Below are positions 9,001-42,557 of a stretch of DNA of 64,000 nt, piece after piece. Origin of the DNA: Spizellomyces punctatus DAOM BR117 (lineage: Eukaryota); assembly GCA_000182565.2 (NCBI GenBank), contig KQ257452.1; one strand, 5' to 3'. Made by a program: the position numbers and the translations under genes. The notes beneath the pieces are model-generated. The model was not told where the DNA came from. It saw nothing but the letters and a program-made list of their open reading frames with translations, and searched no databases. How positions within the stretch are numbered: position 1 is the first letter of the stretch; every line of letters begins with the position of its first letter.

Positions 9001-9864
9001 TAACCTGGCTAAACCGTACAGTCGCCACCGAATACAACGAAACGCTCTATATTGGTGCGGCCGTATGGAACTTTGTGGCGCTGATGTCCATCGGGTTGCC
9101 ATTGGTTTACATCCAGTCGTTATACGAGTATCAGTTTGTAATTCGGCAGATCATCGTCTTGCTGGTTACTACCTTCACGCTTTTGGTGCTTTTCGCGCCA
9201 GTTTTGTTGAGGATTGCTGGGGTTAAGACTGAAAAAGTGGACCTGATGAACAGCTTTGCCAACAATGTGTTGAAGTCGGACTTTAATAGTAAATTCGGAT
9301 CAACGTCTACGTCTGAGTCGCTTATCACGAACTCGGTAGGTTGAAAGATGGCCCCATTTTTCTTCATTTACAATATCCAGCTAACATCAGAAATTACAAA
9401 AAGACCATCGTTCCGGCAATCGAGCGCGGCGGCTTGTGGACCTTGCTCAATCGTTGGGAAACCATGCGGGTTTTCGTCATCCCGAAAATGAACACTCTCA
9501 TAGCAGTCCAAGTGAGATACAACTATATCACCTCTGTTGCAGCAGATATTCTGACCGCATAATCCGATCCTTGATCCAGCTCTCAAACGGCCGAGCATTC
9601 ACATACAATCTTGTGGACAGCATAATCTCTGAAGCCAGTAACTCGGGAGACGAATTCAGCGTCGTGGTGACCTTCCCCAAAACAAAGCGGACCTTCTACT
9701 TGTCTTTCAACAGCCACGAACAGCGTACTGCTTGGATGGCCTTGATTGCTTCAGCTGGTGGCTCGCATGCAGGCTCGGCTACTGGCAGCAAGGATCCCAA
9801 TCGCCGGACTTCAGGTTTACAAAGTCCGCCCATCAAATCCGCGGAAGTCTCTAGTGCGCCATGA
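6014..9864 (+). CDS. Class C (GABA-B/mGluR-like) GPCR: signal peptide, Venus-flytrap/ANF-receptor domain, 7TM_3 and a C-terminal PH-like domain
   Basis: Motifs AIVGGSSSDVAIAMAQ, PVCSPQAYSYVLSDKTKYPYFFR and YGWTRFSFIY; TM segments with KSWRLYRIF and EYNETLYIG; about 13 introns. Confidence 0.85.
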
Positions 9865-10600
9865 TACTAGGTGGATGTGTTCATTCTAGCAGACTGCCTA
9901 CAGGTTGCCAAAGCAAGCAAGCTTCGAGCTCCGAGACAGTGTGAAGCAGATTAAAGCAACAATATTCCGCAATTCTGGCTTTCTTGCTCCCGAAGACATG
10001 ATTGGGTCCTACATCTTGCAGGAACCGTAGGGCGAGATATGATGTACCTCATAGCAGCGGCCTCGTCATTGCGTCCGGAAAATTTCCTTGGAGCCGGTCC
10101 ATTTCAAGACAAGATTGATATATTGGCTGGCCCATACAAAGTTATACAATGGTTCTTGACAGCTTACCAATATACCTATCGTGTCTAACTTTGCCCCGTA
10201 ACTCAGTCGGATCAGTTCGAAGGAGATAGGCACGTACGCCCCTGTAGCCGACTGGTTTCCTCAGAACTGATCATATTCACAATAATGCTGTCAGATGCGC
10301 GCGAAGATTTATCCAGGGTATCCGCGCTTTGTACTGTGTAGGAGGTTACGTGCCATGTGTTTCGTTGAGTCCAAAAGTCAAATTTCAAGGTTTAGAGATT
10401 CAGCGCGTGTGTTCAGTTGCTGGTGTTCTTCATCCGATGCAGGAAGCGAAAGAATGAGTGACTCCGTAAAGCCAATGGTCCGTAAGAGGATGTCATCCAT
10501 TTCTCTTCTCGGTATATTCCTATTGTAGAACCCTAATTGCTCGTCACCGGTTGCATCCCCTGACGTTGCTACCTTATATAGGTGGCATTGCAAGCGCGAT
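9860..10600 (-). pseudogene. Degenerate gene remnant containing dispersed repeat copy B (9860-10138)
   Basis: The minus-strand reading frame has several in-frame stops but continues into the segment homologous to 1929-2185. Confidence 0.5.
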
Positions 10601-25416: not shown

Positions 25417-26147
25417 GTTTCCGCGATGACACTCTGCTTGAACACTGTGGGGTCGTCATTCCATTCTCACAGCCTGTCACATGACATATCACGTGGTGGG
25501 CATATTCATCTCAGGTCTAGCGTATATTAACCTACTTTGGCAAAATGTTTGGTAGTAACATCAACACCCGGCGTGGCTTTACAACCAGGGTGAAATCAAG
25601 GCTACGCCTTCTCCATGCAGGATGAACTAGATGCAGATCATGGAATGAGTTTCTTTTCCGAACCTCGTCAGGGCAATGATTTGTTCTTGACGAGCGTGAT
25701 ATTTTTGACCCGACACTAGGTAGAAATGTAGAATAGCGGTCAGGATGACGCGTAAGTAGTACATAGCTTCTGCTGTTTTCCATTTTCATTCCACAAAGCC
25801 CGTCCTATATGAACTTGGTCGGCTTTTGAAACCGACTTGCGAGTTTCAATGCCTGACTTGAGAAGCCTTCCAACCTTCACACGGGGCATGCATATCGCTC
25901 CTCAGCGTTTATGTGTGAAGATAGAGGCCAATTGCGGTAAAGGGCATTTATTCCAAACAGAAAAGCTACGGTGCCTCATCAAGAGCCCTGGCATTCTTTT
26001 GTGTACACCAAGATCATAGAAGCGTAGGTACCGTAATAAGTCCATGCTGAAAATAGGCGTATGAGCCAATCAAAATGTATTCTCGTCGGCAAAGCAATCC
26101 ACAGATTCTAAATTAAGTTAAACCCAATATCCGTAAGCTCCGACATA

Positions 26148-26854
26148 GTGTGGAGGTGCTTGAAAATGGCACTAAGACCCATTATTATCCGGATAATCCG
26201 GTTAATCATATCGCATAATCAGCACCCCCATCTATTGCTCAAAGTGGTGTGGCATGCATATAATGTTTTTTTTTTTAAACTGCAGTGAGGCACATGCCAA
26301 AGGTCTATAAAAGGGGGCCTTTTGCTGTCTCTCCCCTTCCTCACCAGCTCCTCGACTCTCAAACCATCTGCGCAACACTCATCACGACCCACATTGCGAC
26401 TCAGTCAACCATGAGAATGCAGATGTGGTGGTGCCGAGGACCTCGCCCTCCTGACTACAACCAACTGGAACCAGCAGCAACCACTCGGAACCAACAAAGC
26501 TGCTATTATACTGCCACATTAGTTGAGCTTGGTTGGTATGTACCAACAGCATTTCTTTTCATTCTGTCATTCATCTTGCTGACATGCAGTTTTTTATAGT
26601 CTCCAAGCCTTGTCACTGAAGATCCTCCAGCTTGTGAGTCTCCCCAATGTTGCGAAGACTCTGGCTTCAATGCCATCAAGAGTTCTGGATCAAGGCCTAA
26701 GGGATCGCGTGTGGTAGTGGGCAATTATCCGGTTAGAACCAATTGTTACTGTATAATTGCCCAGTAGTAGTTAGTTAGTTAGCTTTTCCGAACCGGTTGT
26801 CGCCAGTTTATTCCCTGGTGTAGTAGCTAGTGCCAGTTTCTGTCACCTCTACTC
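26148..26854 (+). mobile_element. Non-autonomous TIR element (707 bp), Fanzor 'ghost'-type locus, copy 1
   Basis: Imperfect 27-bp TIRs (GTGTGGAGGTGCTTGAAAATGGCACTA versus reverse-complemented GAGTAGAGGTGACAGAAACTGGCACTA). Preceded by CATA (26144-26147) and followed by TA (26855-26856). Homologous in inverted orientation to 30708-31467. Confidence 0.85.
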
Positions 26855-26871
26855 TATAAATGTCTCCCATG
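26782..26871 (+). ncRNA. Putative Fanzor omegaRNA: 75-nt scaffold 26782-26856 plus about 15-nt flank-derived guide TAAATGTCTCCCATG
   Basis: Scaffold is 73/75 identical to copy 2, overlaps the 3' TIR and has hairpin potential. It resembles the S. punctatus Fanzor1 omegaRNA as I recall it (TTTTCCGA.CCGGTTGTCGC...TCCCTGGTG....GCTAGTGCCA...CACTA). The guide length is assumed from the published system. Confidence 0.75.
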
Positions 26872-27920
26872 ACGCGTAGGTATAATTCCAAGATCTTTAA
26901 TTTTGCAAATGGAAAGTTCCAAACGTGCTGATTGTCTGCTACAGAAGCCTCGTTTGACTTTCTGGCAATGCCACAGCTAGCGACCATTGCAAGTAAACAG
27001 CAGTCTACACAGAACACAATACCTCACGCCGCGTTTATGTTGCCACTGATGCCACAATTCCTTGCGTCCCGGCTATAGGAAGTCCTTGATATGCAATTGG
27101 GTCTCTTCGCAGTTGAGGGCCGGAGAATAGGGTACCGTCAAGTTGCGACTGTTACTTCGGCTGGTCTAGGTATGGGAGTATACCATTCGTCTACCCCTAC
27201 TTACGCCCCGTTATGATACTTACGCAACACCCATCAATATACTGTTCCGCTAGTCATGAGCGAGTGCCCTCGCCGTTATATATGAGTCCCTCATAGGTTA
27301 CCAGTGTCGCGACCGACTCGTCCCGCTCTGCATGCAATTTCCCAAGTCTCTTAACTCTCTGTGGAAACTCCTAATTACTTGAACTGTCCCCTATGCTAAT
27401 CAGCTTCCTTTCGTGCAATAAAGGTCTCCAACTCTTAGATTCGGAAAGTGGCATATTATTTCATTTTCTTCGAGTATGGAACAGGTTTAAGTGATAGTAA
27501 TTCCGACTATATTAGTGTGCAGGACATGGATAATGTCACCTGGTTTTAGTGGTTTAAATGAAAGGAATAAATGCGATTAACCACCCCGACTGCGCATTGA
27601 TTACGTAGTCATGTAATTGCTGCTACTATGGCAACATCGGACGCAATTGGAGAGTCTGTCATAAGGTCATTCATTGCACACCGAGTTCCCTGGACGAAGG
27701 GACGACTAAATGCAACAAAATCTTGAGCCTGCCGACATAGTGCCGCGCCTCACGTCTACGGATTTACCTGACTTGTTATACTGTGGTGAAAGGTCGTTAT
27801 CTTGGCTGTGCGAAGGCACAAGCGAGTTGAACACAATCTTGCGCTCGTTGTTGAAGTAAGAGCTTTTGACTTGCGTCTGTGACGTTCAAAACTTATTCCA
27901 ATCAATTGTAGCACTCGTCA

Positions 27921-29246
27921 ATGTTACCTTCCAAACCCCAGGGAATACTATCAGCAACCGTTCCGGCCACGTCTTCTTTAGACCGTTTACGACGTGATAG
28001 CAGCATTGTTCCCGAGCCTTCTATCGCAACTCGCATTGCTGAACCTAGCGCTCCTGGAAACCCATGTGGTACCTCTCTTGACGGCGGTATTTCAGGTGGC
28101 GGAGTCTACGATTTTCGGGCCTATCCTTCATCCCAGACACATTTACCTCCCGAAAACGTTTACGATTCTAGTTTGGTGCACGGGACAACGTTCAATGCGA
28201 TAGCATTCGGGGCTTCCTTGGTAGCCGCGGTTCCGCGACGGGAGAGGGCGATATTACAGAACCAATTGGCCACCGCGCGACTCATGTATCATCGGGAGCT
28301 CTACCCCCGAATGTTCACCCAAGAGAGGCACATCCTCTAGCCAACTGTGCGGAAGTTCTGGCAGTGGCAGCAACGTGCCACCCAGCATCTCGTCTTTTTC
28401 TCAAAACTTGGATCAGAAACTCCCGACGTCGCAGACCGGTACCGCATTACATTCCCAAGGAGTTCTGTCGGGATTGCCATCAGATGTGCCATCACCTCGT
28501 GTGGCAGGGTCCAGTTGCGGAGATCTGGGACAGGTCCATTTTTCGCTCATGGAGGCGTTCGCAAATGAGGCTCCTGGCATGACCTTTCGTTCCTGGGAAA
28601 GGGATGATTTCGAAGATATCTACGAAGACATACCGTTCCTTCGTCGTCATTGTATTATCCCGCTCCCATCGACGGATGATTGTCTGTTATTGCTAGACGA
28701 GAGTGGTCGGTTTTTGATGTATATCCTTGATATGTCGGTAGTGTATCTAGTTGGGAACAATCTGGAGGAAGGGTGGCGAAGGTTCCTCGAAGGTTCGCAG
28801 GGAAGATGGTCTTTGGTTCTCAACCGAATGGATTCGGACACTGGCTGTCTCTTGAACGACGCCGCCGGCATGAACGTAGGGATAACAACCCTGGTTTTAA
28901 CTCCCAGTCATTATCCAACGGATGCCGAGGTTATGGCTCACGTGGCAGAAAGCATCCAGGAAATGCCCTTCGTTTCCGAAAAAACGATTGCCACCCAGAA
29001 AGCATGTGCCCTTCTGGAGTCCGTCAACCTCCGAGATTATGTTACCATTTCTCTCGCCGTCTCAAACACAGGGTGCGTATTTCATGCCATGCAATCTGGT
29101 CGTGTCTGACTGACTTTTCTCTTCGGTCTTCGAGCAGGTTAGTCGAGATTTCGGGACTGTGGAAGAAAACAAATGATGAAGAACAGGTGCAGAAGCTCTT
29201 GCAAACGTATGGGCAAAATCGGTTAGGGCTAGTGGGATTAGAGTAG
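27921..29246 (+). CDS. Transposon cargo gene: Ser-rich N-terminus, SUKH/US22-like domain and short alpha/beta C-terminal domain; 5' structure uncertain
   Basis: Main ORF 28375-29109 contains LLLLDESGRFLMYILDMSVVYLVGNNLEEGWRRFLEG. A clean intron at 29073-29137 (GTGCGT...CTGAC...CAG) joins in frame to LVEISGLWKKTNDEEQVQKLLQTY...*. The link to upstream ORF 27921-28340 is unresolved. Confidence 0.55.
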
Positions 29247-29316
29247 ATTTATTCCCAATAAAGTCACCGTCAACGAAGGTTCATAAACGCTACGGCAGCT
29301 AATATATAGGAATACA

Positions 29317-30384
29317 CTACAAACTGATATGTGGATACACTGCTCTGAAAGCCCTCTCAGTGCCTCGCTCTCGAAAATAACCTTCAAATTGTTCACGACC
29401 TATCCTACTAGCAGCAGATTGCAAGTCTCTGATCAATTCGGCCTCCGTTCGGGGACGTTGTTCCGAGCAAGCTACACTCGTAGTGTACAGATTCCGCAGA
29501 TGCGTCTTCAGAGTTCCAAATACCAGTTCGACCGGATTATACATTTCTCCTCGTGGGGGTAAGAAGACAACTTGGCATCCTTTGTCTTCTATAAGTCGTC
29601 GAACGCCAGGATTGAAGTGCTGCTTTGAAGGGTTCACACAACGTCCCGCTTTACCCGAACGATCCCAGATGACCACTTCATTCGGGCGTAAATTCGGAAC
29701 CAAATTTTGCCATACATAATGGTAGAAGTTTAGGTCATTAGCCGCTTCTGCGTCAACGATCGGTGGATGAACCAATCCGTCTTCCCTGATCGCAAGATAT
29801 ATTGTCCATCGCTTTCCATGCCTGGAACGCTCCCGTGATATAGGGCATCCCTGTACGCTACGACCTCGTCCCGGAGCCTCGTTGTCATATATAAAGCTCT
29901 CATCCATGTAGACTCGCCGCGACATTGGGATGGTTCTCATTAATGCGCAATAATCCTTGACAAGCTGGAAGGATTCCTCCGAAGAATAGGTCTCTTGTTC
30001 GTCACTGAATAACTTGCGCGTGAACTTCGCTCTTTTCAAGTACTGTGAAACAGTCCTTGGACTGATCCTGTTGTCGAACAAACGAGCAGCTTGCAGGTTT
30101 GTCAATCCAGGATTCTTTCTAAACTCTGATAGAAGACGAAGTTGATCGTCTTCGGTAAGCTTGAAGTCAGGTCCCTTCTTCTTCAGTGGACGAAGGTCGT
30201 GGGTTTCTTCCCATTGTTTTTTCCACCGAAATAGAGTTCTACGGTTGACTTTAAAAGTGGAACATACTGCAGCAGCTGTTGAGTTTCTGAGAGCTTTAAC
30301 AGCAGAGATGCGGGTCTCTAGGCTCCTATGCTTATTGCGAGTATGCTGGATAAGTTCTTTCGAAAGTGAACTGTTTTCGACCAT
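29317..30384 (-). CDS. IS630/Tc1-like DDE transposase (about 355 aa from MVENSS), uninterrupted
   Basis: Two HTH regions (VNRRTLFRWKKQW, ISPRTVSQYLKR) and catalytic VYMDES, VIWDR and FLPPRGEMYNPVELVFGTLK. Confidence 0.93.
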   Translation of the reverse strand: MVENSSLSKELIQHTRNKHRSLETRISAVKALRNSTAAAVCSTFKVNRRTLFRWKKQWEETHDLRPLKKKGPDFKLTEDDQLRLLSEFRKNPGLTNLQAARLFDNRISPRTVSQYLKRAKFTRKLFSDEQETYSSEESFQLVKDYCALMRTIPMSRRVYMDESFIYDNEAPGRGRSVQGCPISRERSRHGKRWTIYLAIREDGLVHPPIVDAEAANDLNFYHYVWQNLVPNLRPNEVVIWDRSGKAGRCVNPSKQHFNPGVRRLIEDKGCQVVFLPPRGEMYNPVELVFGTLKTHLRNLYTTSVACSEQRPRTEAELIRDLQSAASRIGREQFEGYFRERGTERAFRAVYPHISL

Positions 30385-30537
30385 CGAGACGGGAAAGAAA
30401 ATGAATCTCCTCAATTGTGACTCGAAGTGGATGGGGAGTTCATAGACTAAATGTGAAAGTGCCACTTTCAGCATTCCGAAACAATTGAACCATTGAGGTT
30501 GGATACAACCAGTGACATTATCCATATCCTGCACACT

Positions 30538-30685
30538 TATTATTTAATTAAAAATGAGCACACCTCTAGGTACGGCGTTACTTACTGCATCTCAAACAAG
30601 GAAGCAGAGACTATCCTTTCCAAATTCAAGGAATTCAAGGCATGGATCGAACGCACCACGGACAAGAAAATACGCATTAAAAATG
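30538..30685 (+). pseudogene. Ty1/copia integrase (rve) fragment
   Basis: YYLIKNEHTSRYGVTYCISNKEAETILSKFKEFKAWIERTTDKKIRI matches the copia integrase segment that precedes the RSDNGGE motif, which is missing here. Confidence 0.7.
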
Positions 30686-30690
30686 AGTTT

Positions 30691-30780
30691 GCGTTCTTGG
30701 CTTGTTAGTGTAGAGGTGACAGAAACTGGCACTAGCTACTACACCAGGGAATAAACCGGCGACAACCGGTTCGGAAAAGC
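30691..30780 (-). ncRNA. Putative Fanzor omegaRNA: 75-nt scaffold 30780-30706 plus about 15-nt flank-derived guide ACAAGCCAAGAACGC
   Basis: Scaffold GCTTTTCCGAACCGGTTGTCGCCGGTTTATTCCCTGGTGTAGTAGCTAGTGCCAGTTTCTGTCACCTCTACACTA has perfect AACCGG/CCGGTT and GTGTAG/CTACAC pairings. Confidence 0.78.
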
Positions 30781-31467
30781 TAAGCTACTACTAGGCAATT
30801 ATACACGCAATACGTAACAGTTGGTTCTAACCGGATAATTGCCCACCACCACACGCGGTCCCTACTAGGCCTTGATCTGGAACTCTTGATGGCATTGAAG
30901 CCACACTCTTGCATCCAGGAGCGAATCGACTGGGCAGCGTCACAAGCTGGGGGATGTTCAGTGACAAGGCTTGGAGACTAGAGAAAAAAACTGCATGTCA
31001 GAAGATGACCCGATGACAAGAAATGCAAGAAATGCCATTGATACATACCAACCAAGCTCAACTAATGTGGCAGCATAATAGTAGGTTTTGGTATCGGATC
31101 CGATCGGTTGCCGCTGGTTCTGATCACGGTTGCTGTCGGGCGGTCGAGGTCCTCGACACCACCACATCGGCGTTCTCATGGTTGACCGAGTCACGATGAG
31201 GTTGCAATGTGGGTCGCTATGAGGTTGCAACGTGGGTCGCAATGAGCGTTGCGCAGATGCTTGTGAGTTGAGGGATAAAGAGGAAAGAGGGAAGAGGGAG
31301 CAGGTCCCCTTTTATAGACCTTCGGCATGTGCCTCACCGCAGTTTAAAAAAAAAAACATTACAATACATGCCACACTGCTTTGAGCAATAGATGGGGGTG
31401 CGATATGATTAACCGGATTAATCCGGATAATAATGGGTCCTAGTGCCATTTTCACTCGCCTCCACAC
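30708..31467 (-). mobile_element. Non-autonomous TIR element (760 bp), Fanzor 'ghost'-type locus, copy 2
   Basis: 28-bp TIRs with 23/28 match. TA at 30706-30707 and TATG (reverse complement CATA) at 31468-31471. Internal 23-bp tandem duplication at about 31195-31240 that is absent from copy 1. Confidence 0.87.
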
Positions 31468-31966
31468 TATGTGCTCTGAGGTAAGTACGGGTACGCATGA
31501 AATATTTACGGTCGTTAAACAGACGTGCTACGAATTTCTAACCCGAGTTTCTTTAATATCGCAATAGCTTGCATTCGGGTTTCCAACGTAGTTTGCTTCT
31601 TCTTCAGGATATTACAATTTGAGGAGACAGCTTGTGTTTGTAACAAAAATGCCAGGCATTATGGTCAGGCAATCAGCGCTTCAAAACTGCAAGATGGTTG
31701 GAAGGGCATATAAATTATTAAGGATCGTGTCTGCCGCTATGCACTGGATGTAGATCGGCAGAAGTATCGGACAAAACAATGGGTACCAAGTCGGCTATTA
31801 GTCACGTGATATTGTAGTGGCTGGCATCTTGATATGTGCTCCCGCCCGCCCACACCATTATGCCTAATGATCTTGCCCGCTAAAAAACAGTTCCTGTGTC
31901 CCAACTCTGTGTGCTCTACTGCCGCACCGTCAATTCAGGTGCGGAGATTGTCAAATTTCGATAGTC

Positions 31967-35152: not shown

Positions 35153-35486
35153 CGCGCACTTGTGCACTATGGAACCGCGCAATAGATGGTCGTAAAGCCT
35201 ATCATACAATCCTGCCAGAAGTGCAAGACGGTCAACGGGACAAGAGCTTACCGAAGCGACGTATCACGTGCTCTATATGACCCATGCAAACAACTTTACG
35301 TACTTGATACTATACTTATCATTGACGCCTCGCCAATACATTTCTCGCCGGCTTTCCTGCGCACCTTTCGTACCTTGGATGATGACAATTACAAGATAAA
35401 TGCCAAAGGACGATTATATACACGGTTTGGTGTTTGAGGAAGTCAGTATAAGATATATGATCTTCAGGATTCCGCCAAATGCATCG

Positions 35487-35558
35487 GGGCCTATGGTCTA
35501 GTGGTACGATTCCCGCTTTGGGTGCGGGAGGTCCTGGGTTCGAACCCCAGTAGGCCCC
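35487..35558 (+). tRNA. tRNA-Pro (UGG)
   Basis: Acceptor stem GGGCCTA/TAGGCCC, D-loop TGGTCTAGTGG, anticodon arm CCCGC-TTTGGGT-GCGGG, T-loop GGTTCGAACC and a downstream T-run. Confidence 0.97.
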
Positions 35559-35707
35559 TTTGAATAGCTTCCAGTAGTGTTTTTTAATTCAACTTTTGGG
35601 TATGCGCGAATATTGCCCATCTTACTTGCACGTGAGGAATAGTGGAGTGTCAGCTCACACGACGATATCGGACGGGCAGCTTGTCCTTTGCTCACCTTCC
35701 GCTTCGA

Positions 35708-41559: not shown

Positions 41560-41860
41560 CCGGGCAGTAAGATCGGCTGTTTGTACATGTATAGTATGGC
41601 AGACATCTAATTTTCAGCTGCTGATGTTTGTACCTTATATTTGAATTGTAAATTTGTGCTTTTGTACGCTATGATGCTATGATGAATAATTTGACTAGTC
41701 TATGAGTGAATTCGACCCTGGTCGCTGCCGCTGGACGGCGGCCCCTCGAGCAGCTGGCATTTGATTAACCAGCCGACCGCAAGGAACAGCATGAGAGGTG
41801 TTCTGAAGAAGACTCCTTTACGATCATATACATGTATACAAAGAAACTTGATTTTCGTCG

Positions 41861-41932
41861 GGGCCTATGGTCTAGTGGTACGATTCCCGCTTTGGGTGCG
41901 GGAGGTCCTGGGTTCGAACCCCAGTAGGCCCC
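41861..41932 (+). tRNA. tRNA-Pro (UGG), identical to 35487-35558
   Basis: Same 72-nt cloverleaf sequence. Confidence 0.97.
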
Positions 41933-42557
41933 TTCTTACAGGGAGACATACATTTTTGGTATCCTTGCTCGGATCTCGCGCGATGGATGGATTTACCAAT
42001 CTTCTTGGGGCCAGAATGTAATTCGATGTGCCTGGAAATCCGTGCTGGGGTAGGGGACCTTATTTTACGGTGGCATATGCTGAGAACAGACATACATTTA
42101 ATCTCTGGGTTTCTTGACGACAATATGATCATTACGTTATGAACAAAAACCTCTGCCTTTCGAAAAGTACTATCATGCAGCTCGCATTGTACATGGCATG
42201 GTGCAGTCAGTGGTATGCAACACATGGTATTGAAGATAACATGTGGCCATTCGATAGGCCTACACGGCACACGTTCTTTCCTTCTGCCTTTCTGCTTCCT
42301 TTTCTTTTCGCTAGTTTTGCTGGTAGTGATGCAGTAAGAAGTTCCTCCTTGAATTCACATCTAGTGAACCTGGAAACAGCATTTCCGTTGAGAATGCCCT
42401 CCAACCTGTGTATCGTTTGAATGTCAGCAATGGATAAGCAACAGACCCAACAACTGATCGACATTGTCGCGTGTGTCACGTGTTAATACCAGGGCTAGCA
42501 GTGACAGCGCACAACGATCAGAGCCATCCGCAACACACAAAAGTGCAATCAGCCGCC

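Follow-up and report, generated by a model that had tools for sequence, protein, structure and literature searches.

The window analysed here, a 64,000-nt stretch of contig KQ257452.1 (assembly GCA_000182565.2) of the soil fungus Spizellomyces punctatus DAOM BR117, contains an element of 3022 bp at 27515-30536 that is bounded by 28-bp terminal inverted repeats and lies between two ghost Spu-1 elements in inverted orientation. It belongs to the Tc1/mariner (IS630-Tc1-mariner) superfamily as a transposon of autonomous type, and it carries a transposase gene and, convergent with it, a passenger gene. The left repeat (27515-27542, plus strand), which carries the 11-position signature described below, and the right repeat (30509-30536, minus strand), the exact string quoted in the initial annotation of this DNA, are identical at 25 of 28 positions when compared ungapped, one of the three mismatches being an inserted C (chance expectation 0). 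With a gap allowed the two differ by one substitution and one inserted C, and a listing of inverted-repeat pairs joined the same ends as 29 nt at 93%. As read from the sequence, the left flank is TA at 27513-27514 (or TTA, 27512-27514), a putative target-site duplication, and the right flank is TTA (30537-30539). Judged from this single copy, the duplication is either TTA, a 3-bp match without differences between the two flanks, or TA, in which case the right end has an extra T.

A transposase and a convergent passenger gene

The transposase coding sequence occupies 29317-30384 on the minus strand (355 amino acids plus stop) and starts at a codon conserved in its homologues. Further upstream the frame stays open as far as an ATG within the repeat, at 30525 (29317-30525, minus strand, 402 amino acids); since homologues begin at what is Met48 of the window frame, the 355-residue protein is the likely product. 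Pfam searches returned DDE_3 (47.9 bits, cutoff 28.6, E 1.6e-12) and HTH_23 (36.5 bits, cutoff 24.6, E 4e-9), and HTH_28 and HTH_Tnp_IS630 both fell under their Pfam cutoffs. The catalytic residues D161, D241 and E286 stand on invariant columns of the alignment, with spacings of 79 and 44. The protein aligns end to end with 12 homologues and, of the 91 columns in which these are conserved to 90% or more, keeps 88, the three lost columns being L290S and two conservative changes. The enzyme had been described as intact in the initial annotation, and this is borne out by the full-length reading frame, the D/D/E residues and the conserved columns.

A search among 5.8 billion proteins identified 30 homologues of near-equal length, the best of them 70% identical, and the three with named sources all come from chytrid fungi (Phlyctochytrium, Lobulomyces and Clydaea). 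No S. punctatus protein was present among these 30 or among 10 shorter matches, and the annotated proteome of this species lacks the transposase, which was missed because the annotation took the passenger gene on the opposite strand instead. A predicted structural model, with a predicted local distance difference test score (pLDDT) of 70.9, found its nearest folds in the Mos1 transpososome (4u7b_A, E 2e-9), the catalytic domains of Sleeping Beauty (5cr4_B, 2.5e-6) and Metnase (3k9k_B, 6.8e-6). The low-confidence part of the model is mostly residues 1-66, with a score of about 31 upstream of the conserved start; helices are placed at 53-165, and the score is 87-92 across most of 71-170. The architecture predicted in this way consists of paired helix-turn-helix domains and a DDE catalytic core with an RNase-H-like fold. 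A sequence profile of the clade gave no match to solved structures at E 0.01 or better.

Among the named Tc1/mariner families, DD34E Tc1 and DD34D mariner both have a spacing of 34 between the second D and the E or D. DD37E is likewise a named spacing family. The spacing of 44 in the present enzyme fits none of the named families with which it was compared. The enzyme is a Tc1/mariner-superfamily transposase from a divergent clade of chytrid and environmental sequences, whose D(79)D(44)E spacing is unusual.

The passenger transcription unit lies on the plus strand at 27682-29390, as given by a spliced contig with approximate outer limits, and contains two GT..AG introns (27856-27911 and 29072-29136). 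Its annotated coding sequence of 210 amino acids (28549-29071 joined to 29137-29246, plus strand) matches SPPG_01875 of S. punctatus DAOM BR117 at 100% identity. This entry, listed as an 'uncharacterized protein', was also the sole database match of the passenger open reading frame (ORF). Two further ORFs stand upstream in other frames of the spliced message (27710-27978, spliced, 71 amino acids; 27921-28340, 139 amino acids; both plus strand), suggesting a long leader or a decayed longer gene. The three frames together come to about 470 codons, a pattern that two frameshifts in a longer gene would produce. SUKH-3 remained under the Pfam cutoff (20.9 and 19.3 bits against 23), the Atlas leads for the passenger (SMI1/KNR4 and SUKH-3) were all under thresholds so that no family is named, and a tblastx comparison of the passenger region with 47 loci of transposase relatives gave no match. 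The passenger is an orphan gene.

Transcription was examined in public sequencing runs compared over 25900-31700, none of the listed runs being on record as RNA. Runs X4 and X11 are labelled 'DNA?' and were read as transcript-derived because introns are missing from them and depth is zero on unique flanks. In X4, a contig of 2609 nt covers 27682-30410 minus the two plus-strand introns and is unbroken over 29137-30410. Run X22 is stranded, its first mate representing the sense strand as calibrated on the ghost introns. In this run sense-strand reads support the passenger GT..AG joint, the passenger 3′ end is covered on the plus strand at depths of 4.6-36.9, and the transposase 3′ end is covered on the minus strand at depths of 149 and 107 (bins within 29198-29585). 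Since strand-calibrated depth was recorded on both 3′ ends, both genes are transcribed; the two messages converge and overlap around 29200-29390. The overlap of the transposase and SPPG_01875 3′ ends, roughly 100-200 nt, could form double-stranded RNA.

Run X1 looks like DNA, because its contigs keep both introns and cover the unique flanks. X1 contigs cross both junctions of the element (27065-28043 and 29780-30632). Word depth in X1, which is not a copy number, is 0-3.0 on the element (mostly 2.1-3.0), similar to the 2.8 of adjacent unique DNA, and sums to 50-200 for the ghosts. BLAST found no second copy of the element within the window. The element appears to be single copy, as far as these checks reach: paralogues that are unannotated and less than 90% alike would escape the window BLAST, the homologue search and the X1 depth comparison.

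Ghost neighbours and their ends

Both neighbours of the element are published ghost Spu-1 elements. The S. punctatus genome was reported to contain 42 Fanzor (Spu-1) loci and 134 ghost Spu-1 elements, each ghost having inverted repeats of 30 nt that enclose about 550 nt of conserved sequence, a conserved CA upstream of its 5′ end and a 75-nt guide-RNA scaffold over its 3′ end; CATA is the motif recognised by the Fanzor nuclease SpuFz1 (Saito et al. 2023, PMC10432273). Here, ghost L (26148-26854, plus strand, 707 bp, with a TATA box) and ghost R (30708-31467, minus strand, 760 bp) are 78.7% identical. All four of their ends are flanked by TA, and the 5′ ends are flanked by CATA (gaCATA and caCATA). 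The proposal that element and ghosts both use TA sites consequently holds for the four ghost ends and for the left end of the element, the right flank of the element reading TTA. The ghost repeat quoted in the initial annotation was found exactly once, at 31440-31467 on the minus strand.

By eye, one difference separates the last 75 nt of ghost R at its 3′ end (30706-30780, flanking TA included) from the published 'Ghost4' scaffold; the ghost R scaffold folds into two stems (z -2.29), and its guide would be 30691-30705. In the ghost L scaffold (26782-26856) a G-to-A change breaks stem 1, and the 3′ end reads GAGT instead of GTGT. Ghost L looks decayed and ghost R intact. No transposase or long ORF was found in the 707 and 760 bp of the two ghosts, in agreement with the earlier statement that they encode no transposase, and the name 'Fanzor/ghost family' given to them at that time was correct, the family being real and the neighbours matching published ghosts. 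Fanzor genes themselves number zero in the window: TnpB/Fanzor families gave no match among 129 ORFs of at least 100 amino acids (E 0.001), nor any at E 1 or better in the 17 ORFs that were otherwise unexplained (at least 100 amino acids scanned). A composite long-repeat transposon formed by the two ghosts and the element was also considered and was ruled out, because each ghost has two ends of its own, with separate TA flanks.

To compare the ends of the element with all other sequences of the window, every 28-mer on both strands (about 128,000 positions) was scored against the right repeat. The top non-self scores were 20/28 at 31467 (minus strand) and 19/28 at 26148 (plus strand), which are the two ghost 5′ ends; the ungapped 20/28 match between element and ghost on which the initial annotation was built is thereby confirmed, as the best non-self match in the window. 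The ghost 3′ ends scored 18/28 (30708, plus strand) and 17/28 (26854, minus strand). Scores of at least 17 were reached at 23 positions: the two ends of the element itself, the four ghost ends and 17 background positions (about 1 in 7,500). Since all four ghost termini reach at least 17 in exact register, the likeness of the ends is not due to chance. A signature of 11 positions, GTG....G...A.....A.TG.CAC, which comprises the GTG terminus and an A.TG.CAC core at positions 18-25, is invariant by eye in the element, in both ghost end types and in the SPu-1 and SPu-3 ends given by Bao & Jurka (2013, PMC3627910). The signature has 4 matches in the window where 0.06 are expected, and 0 of 100 shuffles reached 4.

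Over the first 25 nt, the element agrees with the ghost 5′ ends at 18 positions, with the ghost 3′ ends at 15-16, with the SPu-1 end at 17 and with the SPu-3 end at 16. The two ends of one ghost agree with each other at only 19-20/25, so that any mobiliser of the ghosts must accept about as much divergence as separates element and ghost; the ghost 3′ end is additionally constrained by stem 2 of the guide RNA. What a partner of the ghosts should have in common with them, the end signature and TA (at the ghosts and at the left flank of the element), was found.

A possible second site for the transposase was identified in a scan for A.TG[GT]CAC, which has 22 matches in the window on both strands, 7 of them within 26100-31500. 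One of these, TGAAAGTGGCACT (30458-30470, minus strand), falls within the leader of the transposase gene; it is oriented like the repeat core and lies 53 nt further inward. Counted by eye, this inner motif agrees with the ghost end core at 12/15 and with the element's own core at 9/15. It is predicted to be a possible second transposase-binding site, in which case the enzyme would already read a ghost-type core.

Both ghosts also have a TATA-like box and a short ORF, and in both a GT..AG intron is spliced out (26535-26598 in ghost L; 30978-31048, minus strand, in ghost R), suggesting that an RNA polymerase II unit drives the guide-RNA end of the ghost. RNA depth on the sense strand in X22 rose to about 1,900 for ghost L and about 29,900 for ghost R. 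Most of these reads carry fixed differences, and therefore derive from other copies. Inward of 30740, ghost R is matched by thousands of X22 reads and by two X11 contigs, which outward run into a different end (consensus GTATTGGCAATAACAAATGTCAC...). By eye, this outer end closely resembles the SPu-3 end as published, so that ghost-like transcripts ending in SPu-3-type sequence exist and are abundant.

Elsewhere in the window, two stretches of 77 nt that are 100% identical and each contain a tRNA-Pro(UGG) lie in direct orientation 6.4 kb apart (35484-35560 and 41858-41934). An Rfam search over the window returned two tRNAs only, the guide RNA having no family there. Direct repeats at 1906-2231 and 9837-10303, about 7.9 kb apart (190 nt at 88%, with shorter flanking matches), are located beside a family-3 GPCR (G protein-coupled receptor) gene.

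Environmental relatives and candidate movers

The ends of related elements were sought at the 47 loci that encode relatives of the transposase. At L001, the nearest relative to have a candidate end and one whose transposase is 61% identical in amino acid sequence, a TA-flanked candidate end upstream of the gene agrees with the element at 18-19/25. As this candidate end is equally close to the element, the likeness marks the transposase clade and not this enzyme in particular. Of the 47 loci, only L009 (40% amino acid identity) has the signature; its TA-flanked candidate end, located where the transposase ORF begins, agrees with the SPu-3 end at 20/25. The L001 and L009 ends were recognised by likeness and position alone. 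For a candidate left end at L002, which was dropped, no right-hand partner was found. A clear pair of 65-bp repeats, beginning GTGTTGGGG and with TA on both sides, encloses convergent passenger ORFs at L005/L006.

Convergent genes with the flavour of conflict systems follow the transposase relatives at several loci (L001:5120-6109, L002:3791-5543, L007:2119-2610 and L005:2857-4778), and include DUF3990 (below cutoff), LRAT and Fic/DOC, a GNAT acetyltransferase and membrane-like ORFs. Their position inside repeats was demonstrated in L005 only. The transposase clade may habitually carry passengers. No Fanzor was found near the relatives among 33 selected flanking ORFs, which were taken from the 112 ORFs of at least 110 amino acids at ten loci and left out frames overlapping the transposase or nested in others. 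L003 and L004 (45% identity) lie in contigs rich in GC, next to an ORF for a family-B DNA polymerase, which may indicate a viral or other mobile context for the clade.

Direct observation covers the anatomy of the element, the integrity and transcription of its enzyme and the relatedness of its ends to those of the ghosts; from these we infer binding, excision, and this copy rather than an unseen paralogue as the source of the enzyme. The reading preferred here is that a transposase of this clade moves the transposase-less ghost, Spu-1 and SPu-3 elements, a proposal for which we see the scales as level, and the enzyme described above is the only candidate seen so far. Such a transposase would bind the core that ghost, Spu-1 and SPu-3-type ends have in common (positions 18-25) through its helix-turn-helix domains, would cut at the GTG termini with its DDE domain and would insert these elements in trans at TA sites. 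The CATA context of the ghosts might then reflect the needs of the nuclease rather than those of the transposase, and an emptied site would read CATA plus a guide-matching flank, which is the SpuFz1 target. The SpuFz1 step in this scheme is drawn by analogy with the TnpA/TnpB model (Saito et al. 2023, PMC10432273; 2026 review, PMC13565253). A more specific proposal, that this very enzyme is the missing transposase of the SpuFz1 system and that SpuFz1 with its guide RNA cuts the emptied CATA site so that repair restores the element, is tentative and rather unlikely as matters stand. Of the idea in the initial annotation that this enzyme or a close relative mobilises the ghosts in trans, the wording 'close relative or ancestor' stands, the repeats being of the same family; the specific match of enzyme to ghosts does not, the likeness being at the level of the clade.

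Several observations weigh against mobilisation of the ghosts by this enzyme or its clade. Judged by sequence comparison, the ends of the element are no closer to the ghosts than to SPu-1, SPu-3 or L001, which is a clade-wide signal. The L001 candidate end has the same first 12 nt as the element and a different core, the ghosts showing the reverse; and both the L001 and the L009 candidate ends are one-sided, no inverted right-hand partner having been found in the sequences searched. The element differs from the ghost 5′ end at 8/28 positions and from the 3′ end at 10-11/28, which is loose for an autonomous/non-autonomous pair, and the near-identical repeats expected of an autonomous partner were not found for the ghosts or Spu-1. 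Bar the 13-nt inner motif, BLAST within the window detected no similarity between element and ghosts beyond the ends, and the subterminal similarity expected had the ghosts been derived by internal deletion was not found. The flanks of the element are ATTA and TTA, not CATA. In the enzyme, a serine stands two residues past the second catalytic D, where 12/12 homologues have leucine. The element, apparently single copy, shows no sign of recent proliferation; the ghosts here, being only 78.7% identical, are old; and none of the 15 joints listed (of 29) skips the element or a ghost.

Shared ancestry only, with ends descending from a common mariner-type ancestor and a present enzyme that no longer recognises ghost, Spu-1 or SPu-3 ends, is a substantial possibility that nevertheless falls short of an even chance. 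The mover would in that case be an unannotated paralogue or an extinct enzyme, the latter leaving the ghosts as immobile fossils kept for their guide RNAs. Loss of recognition would suit the element's ends being about as far from each of the three types of non-autonomous end (15-18/25) as from the end of a foreign relative (18-19/25), but a ghost's own two ends (19-20/25) differ from each other almost as much as from the element. The age of the ghosts, the lack of subterminal similarity in the window BLAST, the apparent single copy and the lack of excision joints among the 15 listed point in the same direction, as does the identity of SPu-1 copies to their consensus of about 92% (Bao & Jurka 2013, PMC3627910); they have to be set against an enzyme that is intact and transcribed, and against 134 ghost and 42 Fanzor loci, which imply substantial past mobility by such an enzyme. 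Regarding a paralogue, the 40 homologues include no other S. punctatus transposase of this or any DDE_3 type, and none was reported by Saito et al. (PMC10432273) either.

A domesticated or immobilised host gene, flanked by repeats that are relics and have no present role in transposition, appears improbable. The apparent single copy, the transcription, the non-conservative L290S change beside a catalytic residue and the right flank without a clean TA are consistent with domestication. However, the 28-bp repeats are still 25/28 identical ungapped, with one inserted base, the catalytic triad and 88/91 conserved columns are intact, the gene is located in a nest of transposons in an intergenic gap and not in a conserved host context, and the enzyme is not annotated as a host gene. 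Chance or low complexity as the source of the resemblance between element and ghost ends is effectively refuted: although the match is only 20/28, and 18/28 is reached at four unrelated places in the window, the four ghost termini all score 17-20 in terminal register next to TA, the excess of the signature over expectation and shuffles is as given above, and the same signature recurs at the transposase of a relative and in the published SPu-1 and SPu-3 ends.

Relation to known systems

The general association of Fanzor1 with Mariner/Tc1 elements was already known (Bao & Jurka 2013, PMC3627910; Jiang et al. 2023). For SPu-1, SPu-2 and SPu-3 the transposase column of Additional file 1 is empty (Bao & Jurka 2013, PMC3627910), and no transposase was found within Spu-1 ends according to Saito et al. 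(2023, PMC10432273). A motif of the clade transposase had no match in the accessible supplements of Bao & Jurka, files which seemingly contain Fanzor proteins only. No literature naming a transposase for Spu-1 or the ghosts was found in the portions covered, including those of the 2026 review (PMC13565253), Repbase and several supplements being outside this coverage. What is new here is a specific candidate enzyme that is intact, transcribed and unannotated and has related ends, a useful and testable lead.

Among Fanzors SpuFz1 is the reference, being the first for which RNA-guided nuclease activity was demonstrated, with a solved structure and engineered for genome editing, and its natural role is stated to be unknown. 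S. punctatus itself has been reported to be amenable to transformation. The candidate enzyme turns two questions, what moves Spu-1 and the 134 ghosts and what Fanzor is for, into questions for the bench, for which defined parts are now at hand: an enzyme, four end types, a nuclease and guide RNAs. If the more specific proposal on the SpuFz1 system is true, this would be the first eukaryotic pair of a cut-and-paste transposase and an RNA-guided nuclease for which defined parts would allow the natural cooperation to be reconstructed; should the link fail, it would still be useful to know that the only visible mariner-type enzyme of this fungus does not serve these elements.

The closest comparison is with the Spu-1 and ghost elements of S. 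punctatus (PMC3627910, PMC10432273), which share with the present element the genome, inverted repeats, TA flanks and the GTG...A.TG.CAC signature. Spu-1 carries the Fanzor nuclease (SpuFz1) only and the ghosts the guide-RNA end only, neither having a transposase, whereas the element has a transposase and neither Fanzor nor guide-RNA scaffold, and its ends differ from theirs at 7-10/25. Mariner/Tc1 elements with both a transposase and Fanzor1 have been described (PGv-1, PUl-1, ROr-1, ROr-2 and MCi-1), as has PUl-4, a Fanzor-only element whose ends are identical to those of a confirmed Mariner (PMC3627910). The present element resembles them in having a mariner-type enzyme serving TA-flanked elements that carry Fanzor1, as proposed here, and a passenger inside the repeats; unlike the PUl-4 pairing, its ends are 64-72% alike and not identical, and its passenger is an orphan and not a Fanzor.

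In its predicted fold, the enzyme shares with Mos1, Sleeping Beauty and Metnase/SETMAR the same architecture of helix-turn-helix and RNase-H-like DDE/D domains, at sequence identities of 12-16%. The Stowaway miniature inverted-repeat transposable elements of rice are TA-flanked and are moved in trans by Osmar transposases whose own elements have similar but non-identical ends, as shown experimentally. Element and ghosts stand in a similar relation by their ends, the cross-mobilisation proposed here being read from sequence alone. In the IS200/IS605 TnpA-TnpB systems a transposase is likewise joined with an RNA-guided nuclease, the motif of the nuclease is the target site of insertion and the guide reads the flank (PMC10432273, PMC13565253). 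TnpA is an HUH single-strand transposase encoded in cis, whereas the candidate here, encoded outside the elements that it would move, is a cut-and-paste enzyme of the DDE type and would normally leave a footprint on excision. The location of the ghosts at CATA, the motif of SpuFz1, parallels the identity of motif and target seen with TnpB.

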